DNA of 13,807 bases, from IMG/VR virus record IMGVR_UViG_2778261065_000014; one strand, given 5' to 3'. Every line of letters starts with the position of its first letter. Within the stretch, counting starts at the first letter, position 1. The stretch is from a virus. Its lineage: Duplodnaviria; Heunggongvirae; Uroviricota; Caudoviricetes. The translations under genes and the position numbers were made by a program. Below, in pieces: positions 3,154 through 11,842 of this stretch. Under the pieces are notes generated by a model, which saw nothing but the letters and a program-made list of their open reading frames with translations, was not told where the DNA came from and ran no database searches.

Positions 3154-3606
3154 TTAGATGGCTTTGCTTCGATATTCAATTTCTAAAATCGCCTTTGTCA
3201 TTGCCGCAATAGTTATAGCTTCTACCATAGTTAATTCAGGCCTGTTCAAGCTTCCGTGTCCAGCAGTAGGTAGTTTGTTGCGTAAATCATAAATATCTTT
3301 AACAATATCAATAAGATTCTTAGGTAATTTTGACATTTTTTCGAACTGTTTAAAAAAACCACCCAATGACTCATTTGCCACATTCGGGTTTTGAGTGATT
3401 TCCTTCGCCATAGTTTCTAGAATATTAGAGGCTGCGTGCAGTGCACCCGCAGGGTCATTATTATCCAAGCAATTATTCATTCTATCTATTTGCTGAATGA
3501 TATTTGGATGCAATCTCTTTAAGTAATCACTAGCCAATTCTTCATTGAAGTTTTTGACACTTTCAAAAACATCGCAATCTAAATAAAATTTAGGATTGAC
3601 TGACAT
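3154..3606 (-). CDS. Hypothetical protein (150 aa); probably the C-terminal part of the same interrupted gene; possible abortive-infection/HEPN-like protein (speculative)
   Basis: In frame with 3676-4020. No good RBS before the ATG at 3604-3606. Contains DLRNKLPTAGHGS (R-x7-H), which only loosely resembles the HEPN R-x4-6-H motif. AT-rich. Confidence 0.55.
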   Translation of the reverse strand: MSVNPKFYLDCDVFESVKNFNEELASDYLKRLHPNIIQQIDRMNNCLDNNDPAGALHAASNILETMAKEITQNPNVANESLGGFFKQFEKMSKLPKNLIDIVKDIYDLRNKLPTAGHGSLNRPELTMVEAITIAAMTKAILEIEYRSKAI

Positions 3607-3675: not shown

Positions 3676-4020
3676 CTAATCAACATATTTACACATATAA
3701 TCGGCGTAATAGTGTAAATATCTAAATGATATTTCTGGGCAAAAATTACTAACTGATGCAAGGCCGCCATATTCTTTTGTAGTAACTGTTGGGACTTCTT
3801 CATCACATAAATATGAGAAACTAGTTCTTTCCCCAAATTCGCCCAACTCTTTTTCTTTCCTAGTTGCCATACCAGCTATCATATTGATGCTTGAGAGCAA
3901 AACTACACTCTGATAGTACCGAGGACATCTGTATGAACTAGCATATGGGCATTTTGATGATGCTTTACGATTAATACGCTCTTTTTCCCACCAATTTTTA
4001 TCAGGAATAATTCTTTGCAT
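3676..4020 (-). CDS. Hypothetical Cys-rich protein (114 aa); probably the N-terminal part of a gene interrupted by the in-frame TAG at 3676-3678
   Basis: ATG at 4018-4020, TAG at 3676-3678. Same reading frame as the ORF 3154-3606 with no other stop between them. Locally AT-rich. Confidence 0.5.
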   Translation of the reverse strand: MQRIIPDKNWWEKERINRKASSKCPYASSYRCPRYYQSVVLLSSINMIAGMATRKEKELGEFGERTSFSYLCDEEVPTVTTKEYGGLASVSNFCPEISFRYLHYYADYMCKYVD

Positions 4021-4484
4021 AATTTATGCTACTATCTCACGAGTGAATGAATGTTTAGCCTTCTGCACAGTTTATCAGTTCCGGCATACCTACTGCTACC
4101 CCACTGATTCAACTTTAAGTTATGGATTAAAGCGATTCGGTTTCGCTAGATGACACACTAGTGTTAACTTATGGATAAAAATTTATCACTTAAAATTAAC
4201 TAATGACTGTAGCGACCAAAAGTGTGCCAGAATGTTATTTTCGTCTGGCCTATTATCAATCTAATTACCCAAATTAAAGTTACTCTCCTTCATCAGCAAA
4301 AAATAAATACGCCTGTTCACTTTCTCAAAGTGTTCCTGTGTTATTTTTAAAGTTAACAACGCCGTCTATTCGTCCAAATGTACAACAAACATCAGACTCT
4401 GGCACAACGCTGACAATGAGAATAGTTCTAGCCCTGTGCCACAGAAATGTCAATTCACATATGTATTAATGCTCTTTAATCTCG

Positions 4485-4907
4485 TCACTTCAATAAATAG
4501 CGAACATTTCCCTGATAAAATGCCAACACTCGCTGCATTACTTCACTTTCCAGACACTCGCGACAAACCATGTTATGGCGACTATCGTAGCGACGAATTT
4601 CTCCGTCAGGTAATGACCAGATAAGGTCCGGATCAACCATAGACGGTTTCTTCCCCTTTGCCCTCGATAGTTTTTTGCGGGCGTTTTGCCAGTCCTTACG
4701 AGCCTGTTCTGACGGGAATAACCCATAGCCAGAGTTGTATACATCGCCACTGGCAACCAGCTCCCAGGCAAGAACGCTAATCAGATATCTTGTCGCACCT
4801 GTTTTAGCTTCCAGCTGTCGTAACGTCTCGCGCCCACTCTGGCGTACGAGTGCAACAACCTGTCCCTTAATTTTTTCCCGCTCTTCTTGTGTAAAAACTT
4901 TTGCCAC
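4485..4907 (-). CDS. Hypothetical phage protein (140 aa), last gene of the rightward replication operon
   Basis: GTG start at 4905-4907 preceded by a perfect AGGAGG 4 nt upstream (minus strand). Lies 40 nt downstream of the O-like gene stop. No motif recognised. Confidence 0.7.
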   Translation of the reverse strand: MAKVFTQEEREKIKGQVVALVRQSGRETLRQLEAKTGATRYLISVLAWELVASGDVYNSGYGLFPSEQARKDWQNARKKLSRAKGKKPSMVDPDLIWSLPDGEIRRYDSRHNMVCRECLESEVMQRVLAFYQGNVRYLLK

Positions 4908-4947
4908 AAGTCCTCCTGAAAATTACCTCATGATCTGAAATCAATAC

Positions 4948-5910
4948 CTACCCCCTGAACCCTGGTGGAATTTCGGTGTCAGGTTCAGAAATATGATTCA
5001 CACAACGCTGTACAGGCGAACGCCCCAGACGGATAACCAGCTCATCCCATTTATCGCGAAGTTTTGACGGGCTCATGATGTTTTTTACCCAGAATGGATC
5101 CCGCTGTACCCGACCAAACATTTCGCAGATTTGTCTGTGAGTTCTGCCATCCAGCATCCGCATTATGCGCACGTCATTGGCCCATGCTGTCCAGTTGGGT
5201 TCTTTCGGTCGGGTGATCTCGCCATCATCGCTGGCGGCCTGTTCGTAAAGACTCACGATTCGCCCCCAGATCCACTGTGCGCATGCCAAATCCTCCTGAG
5301 TTCCCCACTGACGTTTTTTTGCACTAAACACAACCGCATCAGGATGTCGGGTTAAAAAATCCTGTTCAGCCGTCTGCGGGTCCGGTTGCGAAGCTTCCGG
5401 ACGAAAAGATCTTTTATCTGACGGATCAGGTTTTAATACTGACGGATCGGGGCCAACCATCGCCCCCCTAACCGGCTGTTTTTTACCAACGGTTGATCCA
5501 TCAAAATTTGACGGGTCAACCGTTGAGGGGGCAATATTTGACTGGTCAACTGTTAACGGGTCATTTTTTGCCGGGCTAATTTTTCTTTTCGGTTTATATG
5601 CCTCACGCGCCGCCTCAGCTGCTGCTTCGAGTTTTTCCACATTAAGGCGGTAGATATTGCTTTCATTACGCCCACCGACCTTACGCTCCTCCTTCGTCAG
5701 CCAGCCGTTCTTTTCCAGTTCCGCTATCGCCGCTTTAACCGTTGATTCACTCTTTGCCCCAATCTGACGACGAATGGTCTCCACTGCAGGCCATGACACA
5801 CCTTCGTCATTGCTGTAGTCTGCAAGGCGAGCCATTACTGCCACCCTGGATAAGATCATGCCGGTGAAGGCGCACCCTTCCCAGACAAGACCATGAAGCT
5901 TGCTGCTCAT
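4948..5910 (-). CDS. Phage replication initiator (lambda O-like architecture: N-terminal winged-HTH DNA-binding domain, repetitive linker encoded by ori iterons, C-terminal domain)
   Basis: N-terminus MARLADYSNDEGVSWPAVETIRRQIGAKSESTVKAAIAELEKNGWL is a typical replication-protein wHTH. The central 10-aa repeats (PLTVDQSNIA / PSTVDPSNFD) are encoded by the DNA iterons. Position is immediately downstream of the cro-like and YdaT-like genes. Confidence 0.8.
   Translation of the reverse strand: MSSKLHGLVWEGCAFTGMILSRVAVMARLADYSNDEGVSWPAVETIRRQIGAKSESTVKAAIAELEKNGWLTKEERKVGGRNESNIYRLNVEKLEAAAEAAREAYKPKRKISPAKNDPLTVDQSNIAPSTVDPSNFDGSTVGKKQPVRGAMVGPDPSVLKPDPSDKRSFRPEASQPDPQTAEQDFLTRHPDAVVFSAKKRQWGTQEDLACAQWIWGRIVSLYEQAASDDGEITRPKEPNWTAWANDVRIMRMLDGRTHRQICEMFGRVQRDPFWVKNIMSPSKLRDKWDELVIRLGRSPVQRCVNHISEPDTEIPPGFRG
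5418..5600. other. Putative prophage origin of replication embedded in the initiator gene (iterons plus adjacent AT-rich stretch)
   Basis: Five copies of a 12-bp inverted-repeat motif YTGAYnnRTCAR at 5418-5429, 5439-5450, 5493-5504, 5508-5519 and 5538-5549. Two tandem 30-bp units (5507-5536 and 5537-5566) match at 23 of 30 positions. An AT-rich run follows at 5562-5600. Confidence 0.55.
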
Positions 5911-5933
5911 AAAAAACCCCGAACACCGTGCTT

Positions 5934-6359
5934 TTAGTGCATCACCACAGCATTTCCTGCCGGGCCACCACGATTCATCTGATTGAAACCGGCGATTGCC
6001 ACTGCGACAAAATCATCAGCGTCTCTCACCAGTCGTTCCCGCGTCTCCACCAACTCCCGAAAATAGGCTGAACTGTGGCTGCGCATCCGGGCCACCAGCA
6101 GAGGTGGCATTGCTTTTTCGATTGCTGGTAACAACGCCTGAATTTTTTCAACCGCATCAGTGGTGTCTTTCTCCACCCAGCGGAAAATTTTCTGAGTATT
6201 ACGAGCCAGGGCTTCTGGATGGCTGTCGTCGTACAGTTCCGGGGACGTCATTCCCAGTTCGAAATAAGCCCTGGTTATCTTGGCCGCCGGAACTTTTTCA
6301 CCATCCGGACGCGCCCAGGCATTCATAGCCATGCGGATGTGTTCATGCTTGATTTTCAT
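5934..6359 (-). CDS. ydaT: YdaT-like protein (Rac prophage YdaT family; function debated: CII-like regulator or toxin)
   Basis: N-terminus MKIKHEHI.. and overall length match my recollection of Rac YdaT. Start overlaps the upstream cro-like stop (ATGA overlap at 6356-6359), indicating translational coupling. Confidence 0.75.
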   Translation of the reverse strand: MKIKHEHIRMAMNAWARPDGEKVPAAKITRAYFELGMTSPELYDDSHPEALARNTQKIFRWVEKDTTDAVEKIQALLPAIEKAMPPLLVARMRSHSSAYFRELVETRERLVRDADDFVAVAIAGFNQMNRGGPAGNAVVMH

Positions 6360-6583
6360 GAATCATTCTTTCCTTCGTTCAAGGTGTTATCCTTCTTTTT
6401 GTAAAGTTCTGGGTTCAAAGATAATTTTCCCTTGGAGTATGCGGCAGCTTCCGCGGCCCTCCCCTTGGGAACTATTTCACCAGGACGTTTGCGCCACATG
6501 TATATAGCTTCACGGGTTATCCCATAAAAATCGGCAACTCTCTGAACAGAGCCAAAAAACTGGACAAGTTCATCAACTCGCAT
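6356..6583 (-). CDS. Cro/YdaS-like small HTH DNA-binding protein (75 aa)
   Basis: Perfect AGGAGG 5 nt upstream of the ATG at 6581-6583 (minus strand). HTH-like segment VADFYGITREAIYMWRKRPG. Divergent from the CI-like repressor gene. Confidence 0.8.
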   Translation of the reverse strand: MRVDELVQFFGSVQRVADFYGITREAIYMWRKRPGEIVPKGRAAEAAAYSKGKLSLNPELYKKKDNTLNEGKNDS

Positions 6584-6604
6584 TTCACCCTCCTAAAACT
6601 AAGT

Positions 6605-6640
6605 ATTTTTAGATTAAAGGATAATTTTTTTTAGGTCAAT
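6605..6640 (-). promoter_or_regulatory. pR-like promoter for the cro/ydaT/replication operon, inside the divergent immunity control region
   Basis: On the minus strand: -35 TTGACC (plus-strand 6634-6639), 17-bp spacer, -10 TAATCT (plus-strand 6611-6616), then a short leader with AGGAGG. Flanked by the inverted 9-mers TTTTAGATT (6607-6615) and AATCTAAAA (6644-6652). Confidence 0.5.
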
Positions 6641-6675
6641 GCAATCTAAAATAATTTATATTCAATTCACGGGAG

Positions 6676-7326
6676 ATGATGATGGAAAGCCTTGGCATTA
6701 GGCTTAAGAGACTCAGAAAAGACAAGGGACTGACCCAAGTCGAACTGGGCAAGCTTTCTGGCGTAACAGGGGTAACTATAGGGTACTGGGAGAAAGACCT
6801 AAACGAACCCGGTAGCAAAGCTCTTAGTAAATTAGCCCAAGCACTAGGAACTACTGAGTCCTATCTCCTATATGGAGTATCGTCTACTGAACCTACCCTT
6901 GTGCAGAACAATTCAGGCACCCAAATCCCCTATCTTTCATGGGGGGAAGCAATTTCTTTCCTAATTTTAGAAGGAGAGAAAACTATGGGAAATGCCGACA
7001 GAATCACCACATTCTTTGACGTCAAGGAGGGGGATTTTGCCGTTTCAATGCCTGATGACACTATGCACAACCCATCAGGGTCGCCAAGCATTCCGGTTGG
7101 TGCCACAGTGATCATGAGGCCTAGAGAAAAATATAAAAATGGTAGTATCGTCGCTGTAATAGTCCCAGATCCGCTTACAAACGAACCATCTATGACTATA
7201 AAAAAATTAGTCATCGACGGAAAACTCGTGTATTTAAGCCCCCTCAATCCTCGCTATCAATCGTCCTTACTGACACCTGAATGTAAAATTGTTGCTGTAG
7301 CAAAAGGTGTGCAGTTCAGCCTATAG
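6676..7326 (+). CDS. CI-type prophage repressor with N-terminal XRE-family HTH and C-terminal LexA-like S24 self-cleaving peptidase domain
   Basis: HTH LTQVELGKLSGVTGVTIGYWE; S24 serine motif AVSMPDD and lysine in TIKKLV. Three consecutive ATGs at 6676-6684 with GGGAG just upstream, so the true start is probably the third Met (6682). Followed by a terminator. Confidence 0.85.
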   Translation: MMMESLGIRLKRLRKDKGLTQVELGKLSGVTGVTIGYWEKDLNEPGSKALSKLAQALGTTESYLLYGVSSTEPTLVQNNSGTQIPYLSWGEAISFLILEGEKTMGNADRITTFFDVKEGDFAVSMPDDTMHNPSGSPSIPVGATVIMRPREKYKNGSIVAVIVPDPLTNEPSMTIKKLVIDGKLVYLSPLNPRYQSSLLTPECKIVAVAKGVQFSL

Positions 7327-9370: not shown

Positions 9371-11842
9371 ATGAGTAAAGTCTTTATTTGCGCCGCCATT
9401 CCGGACGAACAGGCAATAAAGGAAGAAGGTGCAGTCGCTGTAGCCACTGCCATTGAAGCCGGCGACGAACGTCGCGCCCGAGCCAAATTTACCTGGCAAT
9501 TCCTGGAGCAATATCCGGCTGCTCAGGACTGCGCTTATAAATTTCTTGTCTGCGAGGATAAACCCGGCATGCCCCGCCCTGCCATCGACTCCTGGGATAC
9601 CGAATATATGCTGGAAAACCGCTGGGATGAGGAAGGCGCTTCCTTTGTCCCGGTCGAACCAGAATCCGATCCGATGAACGTCAATTTTGACAAGCTGTCC
9701 CCTGAAGTACAGAACGCGGTCCTGGTTAAGTTCGACACATGTGAAAACATCACCGTTGATATGGTTATTAGCGCACAGGAATTGTTGCAGGAAGACATGG
9801 CAACATTCGACGGACATATCGTTGAAGCGTTGATGAAAATGCCAGAAGTTAACGCCATGTATCCGGAGCTTAAGTTGCACGCCATTGGGTGGGTTAAGCA
9901 TAAATGTATTCCTGGTGCTAAATGGCCCGAAATTCAGGCAGAGATGCGCATCTGGAAAAAACGTCGCGAAGGTGAACGCAAGGAAACCGGAAAATACACG
10001 TCTGTTGTTGATCTCGCCCGCGCCAGAGCCAATCAACAGTACACTGACAATTCAACAGGAAAAATCAGCCCGGTCATTGCTGCCACTCATCGCGAATACA
10101 AGCAGACATGGAAAACACTGGATGACGAACTGGCCTACGCTCTCTGGCCTGGTGATGTGGATGCCGGAAACATTGACGGCAGCATCCATCGCTGGGCAAA
10201 AAATGAAGTTATCGACAACGACCGCGAAGACTGGAAGCGTATCTCGGCATCAATGCGCAAACAGCCTGATGCCCTTCGCTACGACCGCCAGACTATTTTT
10301 GGCCTTGTCCGTGAACGTCCGATCGACATTCACAAAGACCCTGTGACACTGAACAAATACATTACTGAATACCTGACTACAAAGGGCGTGTTTGAAGATG
10401 AAGGAAGAAATCAGAGCGCAACTGATACTCTCTCGTCGCCAGTACCAGAAACTGATGCAGTGGAAACGGCAATTCCGGACAACGAAAAAACCGAATGCAA
10501 AGTGGAAGTCGAACCATCTGTAGAGCGTGAGGGGCCGTTCTACTTCCTCTTCACCGACAAGGATGGCGAAAAATATGGTCGCGCAAACAAACTTTCTGGT
10601 CTGAATAAGGCGCTGACTGCAGGGGCTACTGAAATCACGAAAGAAGAATATTTTGCCCGTAAAAACGGTACATACTCAGGTTCACAACAAAATACTGGTG
10701 CATCTGACACGACCGCACAACCAGAGCCGGTAAAAGTTACCGCTGACGAAGTAAACAAAATTATGCAGGCAGCCAATATCAGCCAGCCTGACGCCGATAA
10801 GTTGCTTGCTGTATCACGTGGTGAATTTGTTGCAGGGATTAGCGACCCGAATGATCCGAAATGGGTGAAGGGGATTGAAACCCGCGATTCAGTGAATCAG
10901 AACCAGCAAGAAACGGAACAGAACGACCAGAAAGCAGAACAAAACAGCCCAAATGCGTTACAAAACGAGCCAGAAACGAAACAACCTGAGCCAGTAGCGC
11001 AACAGGAAGCGGAAAAAGTCTGCACCGCATGCGGTCAGACCGGCGGCGGCAACTGCCCTGATTGTGGTGCGGTGATGGGCGACGCAACATACCAAGAAAC
11101 ATTCGATGAAGAGAATCAGGTTGAAGTTCAGGAAAATGATCCGGAGGAAATGGAAGGCGCTGAACATCCACACAAGGAGAATGCTGGCAGCGCTCAGGAC
11201 CACGCCAGCAATAATGAAACTGGCGAGACGGCAGATCCCTTAATTGCGGTGAACGGTCATCACGTTATCACATCCACCAGCAGGACGTGTGACCATCTAA
11301 TGATCGACCTTGAAACCATGGGAAAAAATCCTGATGCCCCGATTATCTCAATAGGTGCAATATTTTTCGATCCGCAAACCGGAGATATGGGACCGGAATT
11401 TAGTAAGACTATCGATCTGGAAACTGCTGGCGGAGTCATTGATCGGGACACCATTAAATGGTGGCTTAAGCAATCACGCGAAGCGCAATCTGCCATTATG
11501 ACCGATGAAATCCCGTTAGATGATGCACTGTTACAATTGCGGGAATTTATCGACGAAAACTCCGGTGAATTTTTTGTTCAGGTCTGGGGAAATGGAGCCA
11601 ACTTCGACAACACGATTTTGCGCCGTTCATACGAACGGCAGGGGATCCCCTGCCCGTGGCGTTACTACAACGATCGCGATGTACGCACAATCGTTGAGCT
11701 GGGGAAAGCCATAGACTTCGATGCCAGAACGGCTATTCCATTCGAAGGTGAGCGCCATAATGCACTTGATGACGCCCGTTACCAGGCAAAATACGTTTCA
11801 GTTATCTGGCAAAAACTGATCCCGAGTCAGGCTGATTCTTAA
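9371..11842 (+). CDS. RecE-like prophage exonuclease (family usually annotated exodeoxyribonuclease VIII) with internal C4 zinc ribbon and C-terminal DnaQ-like DEDDh 3'-5' exonuclease domain, 823 aa
   Basis: C-terminal motifs LMIDLETMG (Exo I, D-x-E), GNGANFDNTIL (Exo II) and HNALDDARY (Exo III, H-x4-D). CTAC-x7-CPDC at codons 551-565 (DNA 11021-11065). Central segment SRGEFVAGISDPNDPKWVKGIETRD resembles, from memory, RecE-annotated prophage proteins. GAGG RBS upstream of the ATG at 9371. Confidence 0.85.
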   Translation: MSKVFICAAIPDEQAIKEEGAVAVATAIEAGDERRARAKFTWQFLEQYPAAQDCAYKFLVCEDKPGMPRPAIDSWDTEYMLENRWDEEGASFVPVEPESDPMNVNFDKLSPEVQNAVLVKFDTCENITVDMVISAQELLQEDMATFDGHIVEALMKMPEVNAMYPELKLHAIGWVKHKCIPGAKWPEIQAEMRIWKKRREGERKETGKYTSVVDLARARANQQYTDNSTGKISPVIAATHREYKQTWKTLDDELAYALWPGDVDAGNIDGSIHRWAKNEVIDNDREDWKRISASMRKQPDALRYDRQTIFGLVRERPIDIHKDPVTLNKYITEYLTTKGVFEDEGRNQSATDTLSSPVPETDAVETAIPDNEKTECKVEVEPSVEREGPFYFLFTDKDGEKYGRANKLSGLNKALTAGATEITKEEYFARKNGTYSGSQQNTGASDTTAQPEPVKVTADEVNKIMQAANISQPDADKLLAVSRGEFVAGISDPNDPKWVKGIETRDSVNQNQQETEQNDQKAEQNSPNALQNEPETKQPEPVAQQEAEKVCTACGQTGGGNCPDCGAVMGDATYQETFDEENQVEVQENDPEEMEGAEHPHKENAGSAQDHASNNETGETADPLIAVNGHHVITSTSRTCDHLMIDLETMGKNPDAPIISIGAIFFDPQTGDMGPEFSKTIDLETAGGVIDRDTIKWWLKQSREAQSAIMTDEIPLDDALLQLREFIDENSGEFFVQVWGNGANFDNTILRRSYERQGIPCPWRYYNDRDVRTIVELGKAIDFDARTAIPFEGERHNALDDARYQAKYVSVIWQKLIPSQADS

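Follow-up and report, generated by a model that had tools for sequence, protein, structure and literature searches.

A probable replication origin within the linker-coding part of an O-type initiator gene in a lambdoid prophage of Escherichia coli

The 13,807-nucleotide stretch of Caudoviricetes DNA held as IMG/VR record IMGVR_UViG_2778261065_000014 (the window in what follows, meaning the whole stretch analysed) is a lambdoid prophage of Escherichia coli ARS-C301, and the 541 bases around the repeats described here are 100% identical to the chromosome of that strain. The region at ∼5380–5565, which lies within the linker-coding part of the prophage's own O-type initiator gene, is very likely its replication origin. 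This reading is based on the homology of the initiator to lambda O, the position of the iterons, the constraint acting at the DNA level, the variation of repeat copies in whole units, the exchange of the module between phages, and an AT-rich trough on the C-terminal side of the repeats. By its sequence, the initiator gene is a true relative of lambda O: the protein matches PHROG 391, "replication initiation O-like," with E = 3e-113, and in BLASTP its C-domain (residues 166–293) is 38% identical to residues 155–270 of lambda O (E = 2e-27) and 36% identical to phi80 gp15 (E = 4e-26).

An origin within the initiator gene is textbook knowledge for lambda, and a specialist would expect the same in any O-like gene. 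What is new here is the description of a very widespread module that combines a putative HTH_36 reader domain with YTGAn4TCAR sites spaced 15 bp apart and an invariant pair of GATC boxes, has a DnaT-like C-terminal tail, and lacks a helicase-loader gene. No published description of this origin was found in the literature on oriJ/Rac, initiator-solo modules, O iterons, and HTH_36, and a survey of the "Eru" types of Shiga toxin (Stx) phages lists HTH_36 and YdaT proteins and gives no origin (PMC8951638).

Repeats and codon constraint in the linker-coding DNA

Five 12-bp inverted-repeat copies had been predicted from the letters of the window, and all five are present where the prediction placed them, namely CTGACGGATCAG (5418–5429), CTGACGGATCGG (5439–5450), TTGATCCATCAA (5493–5504), TTGACGGGTCAA (5508–5519), and TTGACTGGTCAA (5538–5549). 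They lie inside the initiator gene, as had also been proposed, in a 320-residue open reading frame at 5910–4948 on the minus strand. The sites form two classes, where class A is a 15-bp array and class B a pair of GATC boxes. Two tandem 30-bp units had been described in addition, and this claim holds in part: Tandem Repeats Finder reports a period of 30 (5502–5575, 2.5 copies, 77% matches), but the basic period is 15 bp, which appears as a sub-period in that output and as five units in 15-bp register over 5487–5576 in a repeat search that also returned a 21-bp pair at 5418/5439.

Class A contains three good palindromes (5538–5549, 5508–5519, and 5493–5504) and two degenerate units (5553–5564, TTAACGGGTCAT, and 5523–5534, TTGAGGGGGCAA). 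On the coding strand, its units 1–5 read GAC CCG TTA ACA GTT (DPLTV), GAC CAG TCA AAT ATT (DQSNI), GCC CCC TCA ACG GTT (APSTV), GAC CCG TCA AAT TTT (DPSNF), and GAT GGA TCA ACC GTT (DGSTV), giving DPLTV-DQSNI-APSTV-DPSNF-DGSTV at residues 117–141, and the 5/10-residue period of this peptide bears out the earlier claim that the repeats encode the peptide repeats of the linker. A GC-rich spacer separates the array from class B, a pair of CTGACGGATC boxes that contain GATC (CTGACGGATCRG) and read GAT CCG TCA GTA TTA AAA CCT (DPSVLKP) followed by GAT CCG TCA GAT AAA AGA TCT (DPSDKRS) on the coding strand, encoding DPSVLKP-DPSDKRS at residues 155–168. The distance from box 1 to box 2 is 21 bp in the window and 18–24 bp in the family.

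The motif YTGANNNNTCAR has seven matches in the 13.8-kb window against 1.36 expected, a number reached in 0 of 200 shuffles; four of the seven fall in 5418–5549, and no other cluster of the motif occurs elsewhere in the window. When the linker protein was held fixed and its codons were resampled synonymously (residues 116–170, 20,000 rounds), 0.53 ± 0.69 palindromic 12-mers were obtained compared with four observed (P = 2.5e-4), and the 15-nt autocorrelation was 30 ± 3 compared with 41 observed (P = 4.5e-4). Both the palindromes and the 15-nt period exceed what resampled codons yield, and the DNA pattern is therefore no by-product of the peptide repeats.

A scan of viral contigs with the N-domain returned only relatives of at least 93% identity, which are useless for codon tests, and genome contigs were used instead. 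From one-genome-per-species contigs, 67 loci were collected (Erwinia, Edwardsiella, Enterobacter, Yersinia, Proteus, Providencia, Gilliamella, and others), and with phage and E. coli relatives added these gave 64 usable genes, or 60 after the removal of near-identical ones. All homologues encode the N-domain, then a variable number of 5-residue repeats of the S-D-x-S-K type, and then a conserved G-G-D-P-S-V ... D-P-S segment. Median relative codon entropy is 0.11 in the 25 conserved linker columns (residues 116–177) vs. 0.88 in 63 N-domain columns (Mann–Whitney p = 1.7e-11, 60 non-redundant genes). Across the 64 genes, 421 of 527 repeat-core serines (80%) are encoded by TCA, a codon used for 10% of serines in the N-domain and for 16% of those in the C-terminal part, and other linker serines are TCT in 51%. 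Box 1, with the family consensus GGGATCCGTCAGTAAA, has its aspartate codon as GAT in every one of the 64 genes and its valine codon as GTA in 96%. The amino acids of the units vary at the same time, the middle codon specifying P, A, T, G, Q, or V and the serine changing to proline or leucine, yet the xCA or xTA form of the codon is kept. Because the synonymous sites are nearly frozen while the linker amino acids vary, the constraint acts on nucleic acid and not on protein. Moreover, the synonymous sites of the N-domain are saturated while those of the linker are nearly fixed, so that, judged by its codons, the linker region is not simply young or recently transferred, and particular bases are held fixed. 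The density of TGAn4TCA in the arrays is also 60–70 times that in the remainder of the same genes.

Copy number varies in whole units. E. coli proteins that are 94–97% identical to the window protein carry array deletions of exactly 5, 10, or 15 residues, and in some E. coli variants a 7-residue deletion removes one class B box. Unit numbers are five in SfIV, six in Klebsiella phage 1 LV-2017, and eight in vB_EcoS-733R5, and the number of exact TGAn4TCA units ranges from 0 to 7 between species. The half-sites track the N-domain clade, with TTGA in clade A and CTGA in clade B, a single split that counts as weak evidence.

The same data bear on the view that the repeats are merely a slippage-prone, low-complexity protein linker (D-x-S-K/N-x) with no DNA role. 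Such a linker would agree with repeats that are in frame and encode 5-, 7-, and 10-residue repeats, with indels that occur in whole units, and with the predicted disorder of this part of the protein. In an AlphaFold2 model, used only for secondary structure and disorder as its confidence is low (mean predicted local distance difference test score, pLDDT, of 57), pLDDT is <50 at residues 107–173, matching the repeat-encoded part, and a disordered linker would leave the protein sequence there free to follow the DNA. This view is nevertheless extremely improbable, since synonymous sites are nearly frozen where amino acids vary, codon resampling rarely yields the palindromes or the 15-nt periodicity (P < 1e-3), and sister genes with other N-domains carry different repeats encoding different peptides.

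Constraint might instead act on single-stranded nucleic acid, either through an mRNA structure affecting translation or stability of the initiator message or through hairpins in single-stranded DNA that serve primosome assembly; the palindromic units could fold as hairpins, and the DnaT-like tail of the initiator points toward a primosome. However, no Rfam family scored above threshold in 4400–6800 (the best was a chance-level microRNA match, E = 0.94), the fixed outer half-sites with variable centres form a pattern typical of dimer binding and not of compensated stems, and copy number varies freely, all of which make a single-strand role very unlikely.

AT-rich tract, related origins, and module exchange

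When the 60 genes are anchored on box 1, mean GC content drops to 0.31–0.34 between flanks of ∼0.63 in 25-nt windows starting 5–25 nt after the GAT codon of box 1, and in 11 of the 16 homologues listed no other part of the gene has a lower GC content than this trough. The corresponding part of the window (∼5398–5443) has a GC content of 0.35–0.38 (0.35 at 5400–5439). The original prediction had placed the AT-rich run of the origin at 5562–5600 instead, and 5560–5599, although no more than moderately AT-rich, is indeed the lowest 40-bp window of the initiator gene (GC 0.325), but this run lies on the N-terminal side of the array, its GC content in clade A is 0.38–0.62, and the family mean has no trough there. 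The likely unwinding region is 5398–5443, and 5562–5600 probably is not, because the former is conserved in the family and shares its position C-terminal to the array with the tracts of lambda, phi80, mEp460_ev081, and vB_EcoM-606R7. In the window, the repeats (residues 117–165) are followed by AAAAGATCTTTTCGTCCGGAAGCTTCG, and a GC-rich inverted repeat (GTCCGG ... GAAGCTTC ... CCGGAC, 5381–5403) lies just beyond the AT-rich tract, where the DNA shared with other C-domains starts; within this inverted repeat, the family uses fixed codons (TGT 100%, GAC 96%).

A relaxed DnaA-box consensus (TTTTCCACA) has a perfect match at 5633–5641, ∼35 bp past the 5562–5600 run, which is probably due to chance because the underlying codons (V-E-K) are not conserved in the family. 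No IHF consensus was found in the origin region. A plasmid iteron origin of the RepA or pi type was considered and rejected, as the repeats lie inside the gene, the DnaA box is not conserved, and there is no IHF site.

Lambdoid phages have their origin midway through O, composed of iterons and an AT-rich tract (PMC7466680). The lambda record has four iterons at O residues 117–145, between the N- and C-domains, compared with residues 117–165 for the repeats of the window. In both, an A-rich tract comes after the repeats on the C-terminal side, with an inverted repeat beyond it that is centred on GAATTC in lambda, and the initiator gene lies downstream of cro and cII or its counterpart. Lambda differs in having a Phage_rep_O N-domain (PF04492) where the window has HTH_36, in its four 18-bp sites (as annotated) placed 20–24 bp apart where the window has 12-bp YTGAn4TCAR sites every 15 bp and a pair of GATC boxes, in its longer AT-rich tract, in its P gene, and in an O protein without a DnaT-like tail. 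The phi80 record similarly has four gp15 sites at residues 122–147, followed by an AT-rich tract and AAAAGATCTTCGTCCG, which at the junction is nearly identical to window 5403–5417; phi80 has a GAATTC-centred inverted repeat in place of the GC-rich one. Unlike the window, it encodes an N-domain of the Phage_rep_O type, its sites are of the TTCCCGAAAACGGGAA type and recur every 21 bp, and its gene 14 is P-like. The Stx phages 933W and P27 have six-iteron origins of the lambda type, with lambda-type O, P, and iteron sequences unlike those of the window, but iteron number differs there between close relatives as it does in the 5- and 7-residue steps of the window family, and the additional iterons of Stx phages (six vs. 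four in lambda) lengthen the O protein (PMC7466680). In vitro, lambda needs only the two iterons adjoining the AT-rich tract (PMC7466680), a need that fits the class B boxes being the most conserved and the distal array being variable. The lambda-like arrangement that the original prediction proposed, with iterons inside an O-type gene, is thus supported by the homology of the C-domain, the equivalence of position, the codon constraint, and the module exchange described below.

Codon constraint shows a cis element and not an origin, and the sites could be bound by the initiator or by some other protein purely for regulation (autoregulation, a transcription roadblock, copy control, or exclusion), with the origin placed elsewhere in the prophage. 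Cloned lambda iterons inhibit phage growth (PMC3349717), which would agree with such a role. On the other hand, the position of the repeats equals that of the proven lambda origin, the series of repeats, AT-rich tract, and inverted repeat (GC-rich here) matches that of lambda and phi80, a second motif cluster is absent from the 13.8-kb window, and in lambda the same sites do both jobs. A purely regulatory function is therefore considered unlikely, and an origin at ∼5380–5565 is preferred.

Further support for the origin comes from the mosaic structure of the initiator gene. In a megablast search of the window against phages, the match breaks inside this gene at ∼5415. In mEp460_ev081, Tritos, vB_EcoM-606R7, and others, the C-terminal half of the gene together with the DUF977 gene is ∼89% identical to the window at the DNA level, and the mosaic junction with the mEp460-type phages lies at ∼5408–5415. 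The N-domains of these phages are unrelated to that of the window and to each other, and those of mEp460_ev081 and vB_EcoM-606R7 have no Pfam match. Both phages share the layout of the window (N-domain, repeats, A-rich stretch, and C-domain) with unrelated repeats of their own: mEp460_ev081 contains four to five 23-bp palindromic units (CATCRGGTCAAAATGRC..GATG) followed by three A-rich 12-mers (ACAGAGAATACA), and vB_EcoM-606R7 contains TCGTGAC repeats followed by three 12-mers (ACAGATAAAGAT). The shared DNA TTTTCGTCCGGAAGCTTCG comes directly after the 12-mers in mEp460_ev081, and in vB_EcoM-606R7 the shared sequence resumes further downstream. Each N-domain type among lambda, phi80, mEp460_ev081, vB_EcoM-606R7, and the window family thus has its own repeats; as the repeats change with the N-domain while the C-domain stays, the N-domain, repeats, and A-rich tract travel as one specificity module, a pattern known from classical comparisons of lambdoid phages.

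The Rac prophage has been reported to have an active origin, oriJ (PMC3945230), and its oriJ region (ydaU-ydaV-ydaW) has the same layout of cro-like, YdaT, initiator, and DUF977 genes as the window. Its YdaU differs in having a DUF1376 N-domain, no detectable similarity to the central or C-domain of the window protein, and a DnaC-like gene after it. In the middle of ydaU there are four AAGCAGATGTTCAA-like 14-mers (spacing 33, 33, and 12; 3972–4063 of the Rac record), which are candidate oriJ iterons.

A 15,977-bp circular E. coli "plasmid," pZ1322PEC0161-2 (NZ_CP148542.1), was considered as a natural lambda-dv-like replicon and was not used as evidence. It carries only the genes from cI through lysis, with a close relative of the initiator and a DnaC-like gene, and has no typed plasmid replicon. 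Because its initiator and ydaT-like genes are frameshifted, it is possibly an assembly artefact; the frameshift in the initiator falls in the GATC-box region.

Initiator domains, GATC pair, and proposed mechanism

The N-domain of the initiator (residues 1–105) lies outside Pfam Phage_rep_O, which lambda O and phi80 gp15 match. The window protein matches HTH_36 only, which makes it an O-type initiator whose putative reader domain is of another kind. A profile of 31 N-domain homologues matched only winged-helix regulators in the PDB (MarR, GntR, and Crp), with scores that are weak but consistent (best E = 2e-4, others E = 0.02 or weaker), and the AlphaFold2 model has a helix-helix-helix-hairpin topology in the N-domain and a helical C-domain. 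Since this domain is a winged helix and the sites are dyad-symmetric, it is the putative reader of the iterons.

At the other end of the protein, the final 20 residues agree with those of E. coli K-12 DnaT at 14 positions (E = 1e-7), and DnaT was matched in the PDB too. DnaT, a replication-restart protein without sequence-specific DNA binding (PMC13377028), shares only this tail (70% identity over the last 20 residues) with the window initiator. Rac YdaU carries the same tail (IPPGFRG). O157-type relatives have a DnaC paralogue, with 49% identity to host DnaC, next after the initiator gene, an arrangement that parallels the host dnaT-dnaC operon. Together, these likenesses suggest that the tail contacts DnaC of the host or the phage, or recruits DnaB-DnaC, which is a lead and not a result.

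The window has GATC sites at 5408, 5424, 5445, and 5495, and these four in 5408–5498 make the densest 100 bp of the window. Their number is no more than the amino acid sequence predicts (codon resampling, P = 0.41), and what stands is the invariance of the box sites at the family level. All 64 genes have a GATC in box 1 and most have one in box 2, and often the gene contains no GATC besides this pair. The site persists even where neighbouring codons differ and the TGAC half-site has disappeared (GAT CCA CAA, GAT CTA, and GAT CTT). Two Klebsiella and E. coli phages encode a Dam methylase immediately downstream of the initiator. Dam/SeqA control of the origin is possible. As a tentative and rather doubtful extension, the module may be an initiator-only variant of the lambda module, set apart by two features not present in lambda, in which the GATC pair inside the AT-rich tract places firing under Dam/SeqA control, as at oriC and P1 oriR, and the DnaT-mimicking tail recruits host DnaB-DnaC without a phage loader. 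Either Dam/SeqA control or tail-based recruitment, if true, would be a route of lambdoid prophage replication that was not found described.

In the proposed mechanism, derepression would free the cro-side promoter, transcription would run through cro and the cII-like gene, and the initiator would be made. Through their winged-helix domains, initiator dimers would then occupy the YTGAn4TCAR dyads of box 1, box 2, and the variable 15-bp array, and the resulting nucleoprotein complex would destabilise the adjoining AT-rich tract (∼5398–5443). The lambda O-type C-domain would bring in the helicase, possibly via the DnaT-like tail; this would probably be host DnaB-DnaC, because no P or DnaC gene is present here.

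Several observations weigh against the origin and its proposed working. Only three of the five array units are good palindromes, the counterpart of the unit that lies nearest box 1 in other clades is degenerate here, and the centre-to-centre spacing of 15 bp is tighter than in lambda and phi80 (20–24 bp). The AT-rich tract is short and just moderately AT-rich in the window. Codon uniformity could be exaggerated inside a single gene by concerted evolution among its tandem repeats, though not across 60 species. No sigma-70 consensus promoter was found in a simple promoter/terminator scan, so that transcriptional activation is argued from gene order only. Finally, no helicase-loader gene (P or DnaC-like) lies directly downstream of the initiator, where the next gene is DUF977/LygF; the isolated phages SfIV and mEp460_ev081 likewise have no loader gene downstream.

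Prophage setting and significance

The gene order around the origin is lambdoid (cI, cro, cII-like, and O-like), and the features and their coordinates are collected in Table 1. In RefSeq, the surrounding 16 kb contains integrase, excisionase, exonuclease, dicB, a LexA-family repressor, cro, and a YdaT-family protein, followed by a "helix-turn-helix domain-containing protein," DUF977, and further on RusA and Q. The cro-like and cII/YdaT-like genes would be the upstream members of the rightward-type operon of the initiator, and transcription through both would enter the origin. The segment comprising the N-domain and the repeats (window 5380–5920) occurs at ∼91% identity in 1521 of 5426 complete E. 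coli genomes (28%), O157:H7 and O104:H4 among them, and is also present across Enterobacterales.

Table 1. Features of the window discussed in the text, with positions counted from its first letter.
Feature	Position	Strand	Basis
Class A iteron array, five 15-bp units (TTGAnnnnTCAA type)	5488–5564		Repeat searches, motif count, codon resampling
Class B box 1, CTGACGGATCGG, coding strand CC GAT CCG TCA G, invariant GATC	5439–5450		GAT in 64/64 homologues
Class B box 2, CTGACGGATCAG, GATC, fits full YTGAn4TCAR	5418–5429		Repeat search, motif count, homologues
Synonymous-site constraint zone, ∼185 bp, residues 116–177	5380–5565		Relative codon entropy; marks extent of cis element
Family-conserved AT-rich tract, overlaps class B boxes	5398–5443		Family GC trough; C-terminal side of array
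AT-rich run of the original prediction, encodes KPKRKISPAKN	5562–5600		GC 0.325; close relatives only
GC-rich inverted repeat, GTCCGG ... GAAGCTTC ... CCGGAC	5381–5403		Read from sequence
O-type initiator gene, 320 residues	5910–4948	−	Open reading frame; PHROG 391; RefSeq name "helix-turn-helix domain-containing protein"
N-terminal winged-helix domain, residues 1–105	5596–5910	−	Pfam HTH_36 (PF13730) at residues 25–71, E = 6e-8
Lambda O-type C-terminal domain, residues 166–293	5032–5415	−	BLASTP
DnaT-like C-terminal tail, QRCVNHISEPDTEIPPGFRG	4951–5010	−	14/20 identical to end of E. coli K-12 DnaT
Repressor	6676–7326	+	Pfam/PHROG, gene order
cro-like gene	6583–6356	−	Pfam/PHROG, gene order
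cII/YdaT-like gene	6359–5934	−	Pfam/PHROG, gene order
DUF977/LygF gene	4907–4485	−	Pfam/PHROG

The DUF977 gene, also named LygF or "Ren-like" (4485–4907, minus strand), occupies the place of lambda P directly after the initiator, and the pairing of initiator and DUF977 recurs in the isolated phages mEp460_ev081, Evi, vB_EcoM-606R7, and HannyBb. Likely defence or addiction cargo lies between the replication and Q regions (1265–1963 and 3154–3606), with a zeta-toxin-family gene and a sub-threshold match to Abi_C (abortive infection), and a truncated hokD is part of the same cargo. A 21-bp tandem repeat (4.3 copies, consensus GAAACAAAACGAGCCAGAAAC) is present at 10894–10984 within an 823-residue exonuclease gene (9371–11842).

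Despite its presence in 1521 of 5426 E. coli genomes, the initiator gene is annotated just as a "helix-turn-helix domain-containing protein," with no origin marked. Knowledge of the origin and its recognition sites would make it possible to predict which prophages still replicate upon induction, a process that amplifies prophage genes. The origin would also account for the mosaic breakpoint inside the initiator gene and would offer a defined target for replication tests. The frozen synonymous sites provide a clean case of a cis element hidden in coding sequence, which is relevant to codon-based evolutionary analyses and to recoding, and the DnaT-like tail and the GATC pair give rise to testable ideas on how lambda-like modules without P may load the host helicase.

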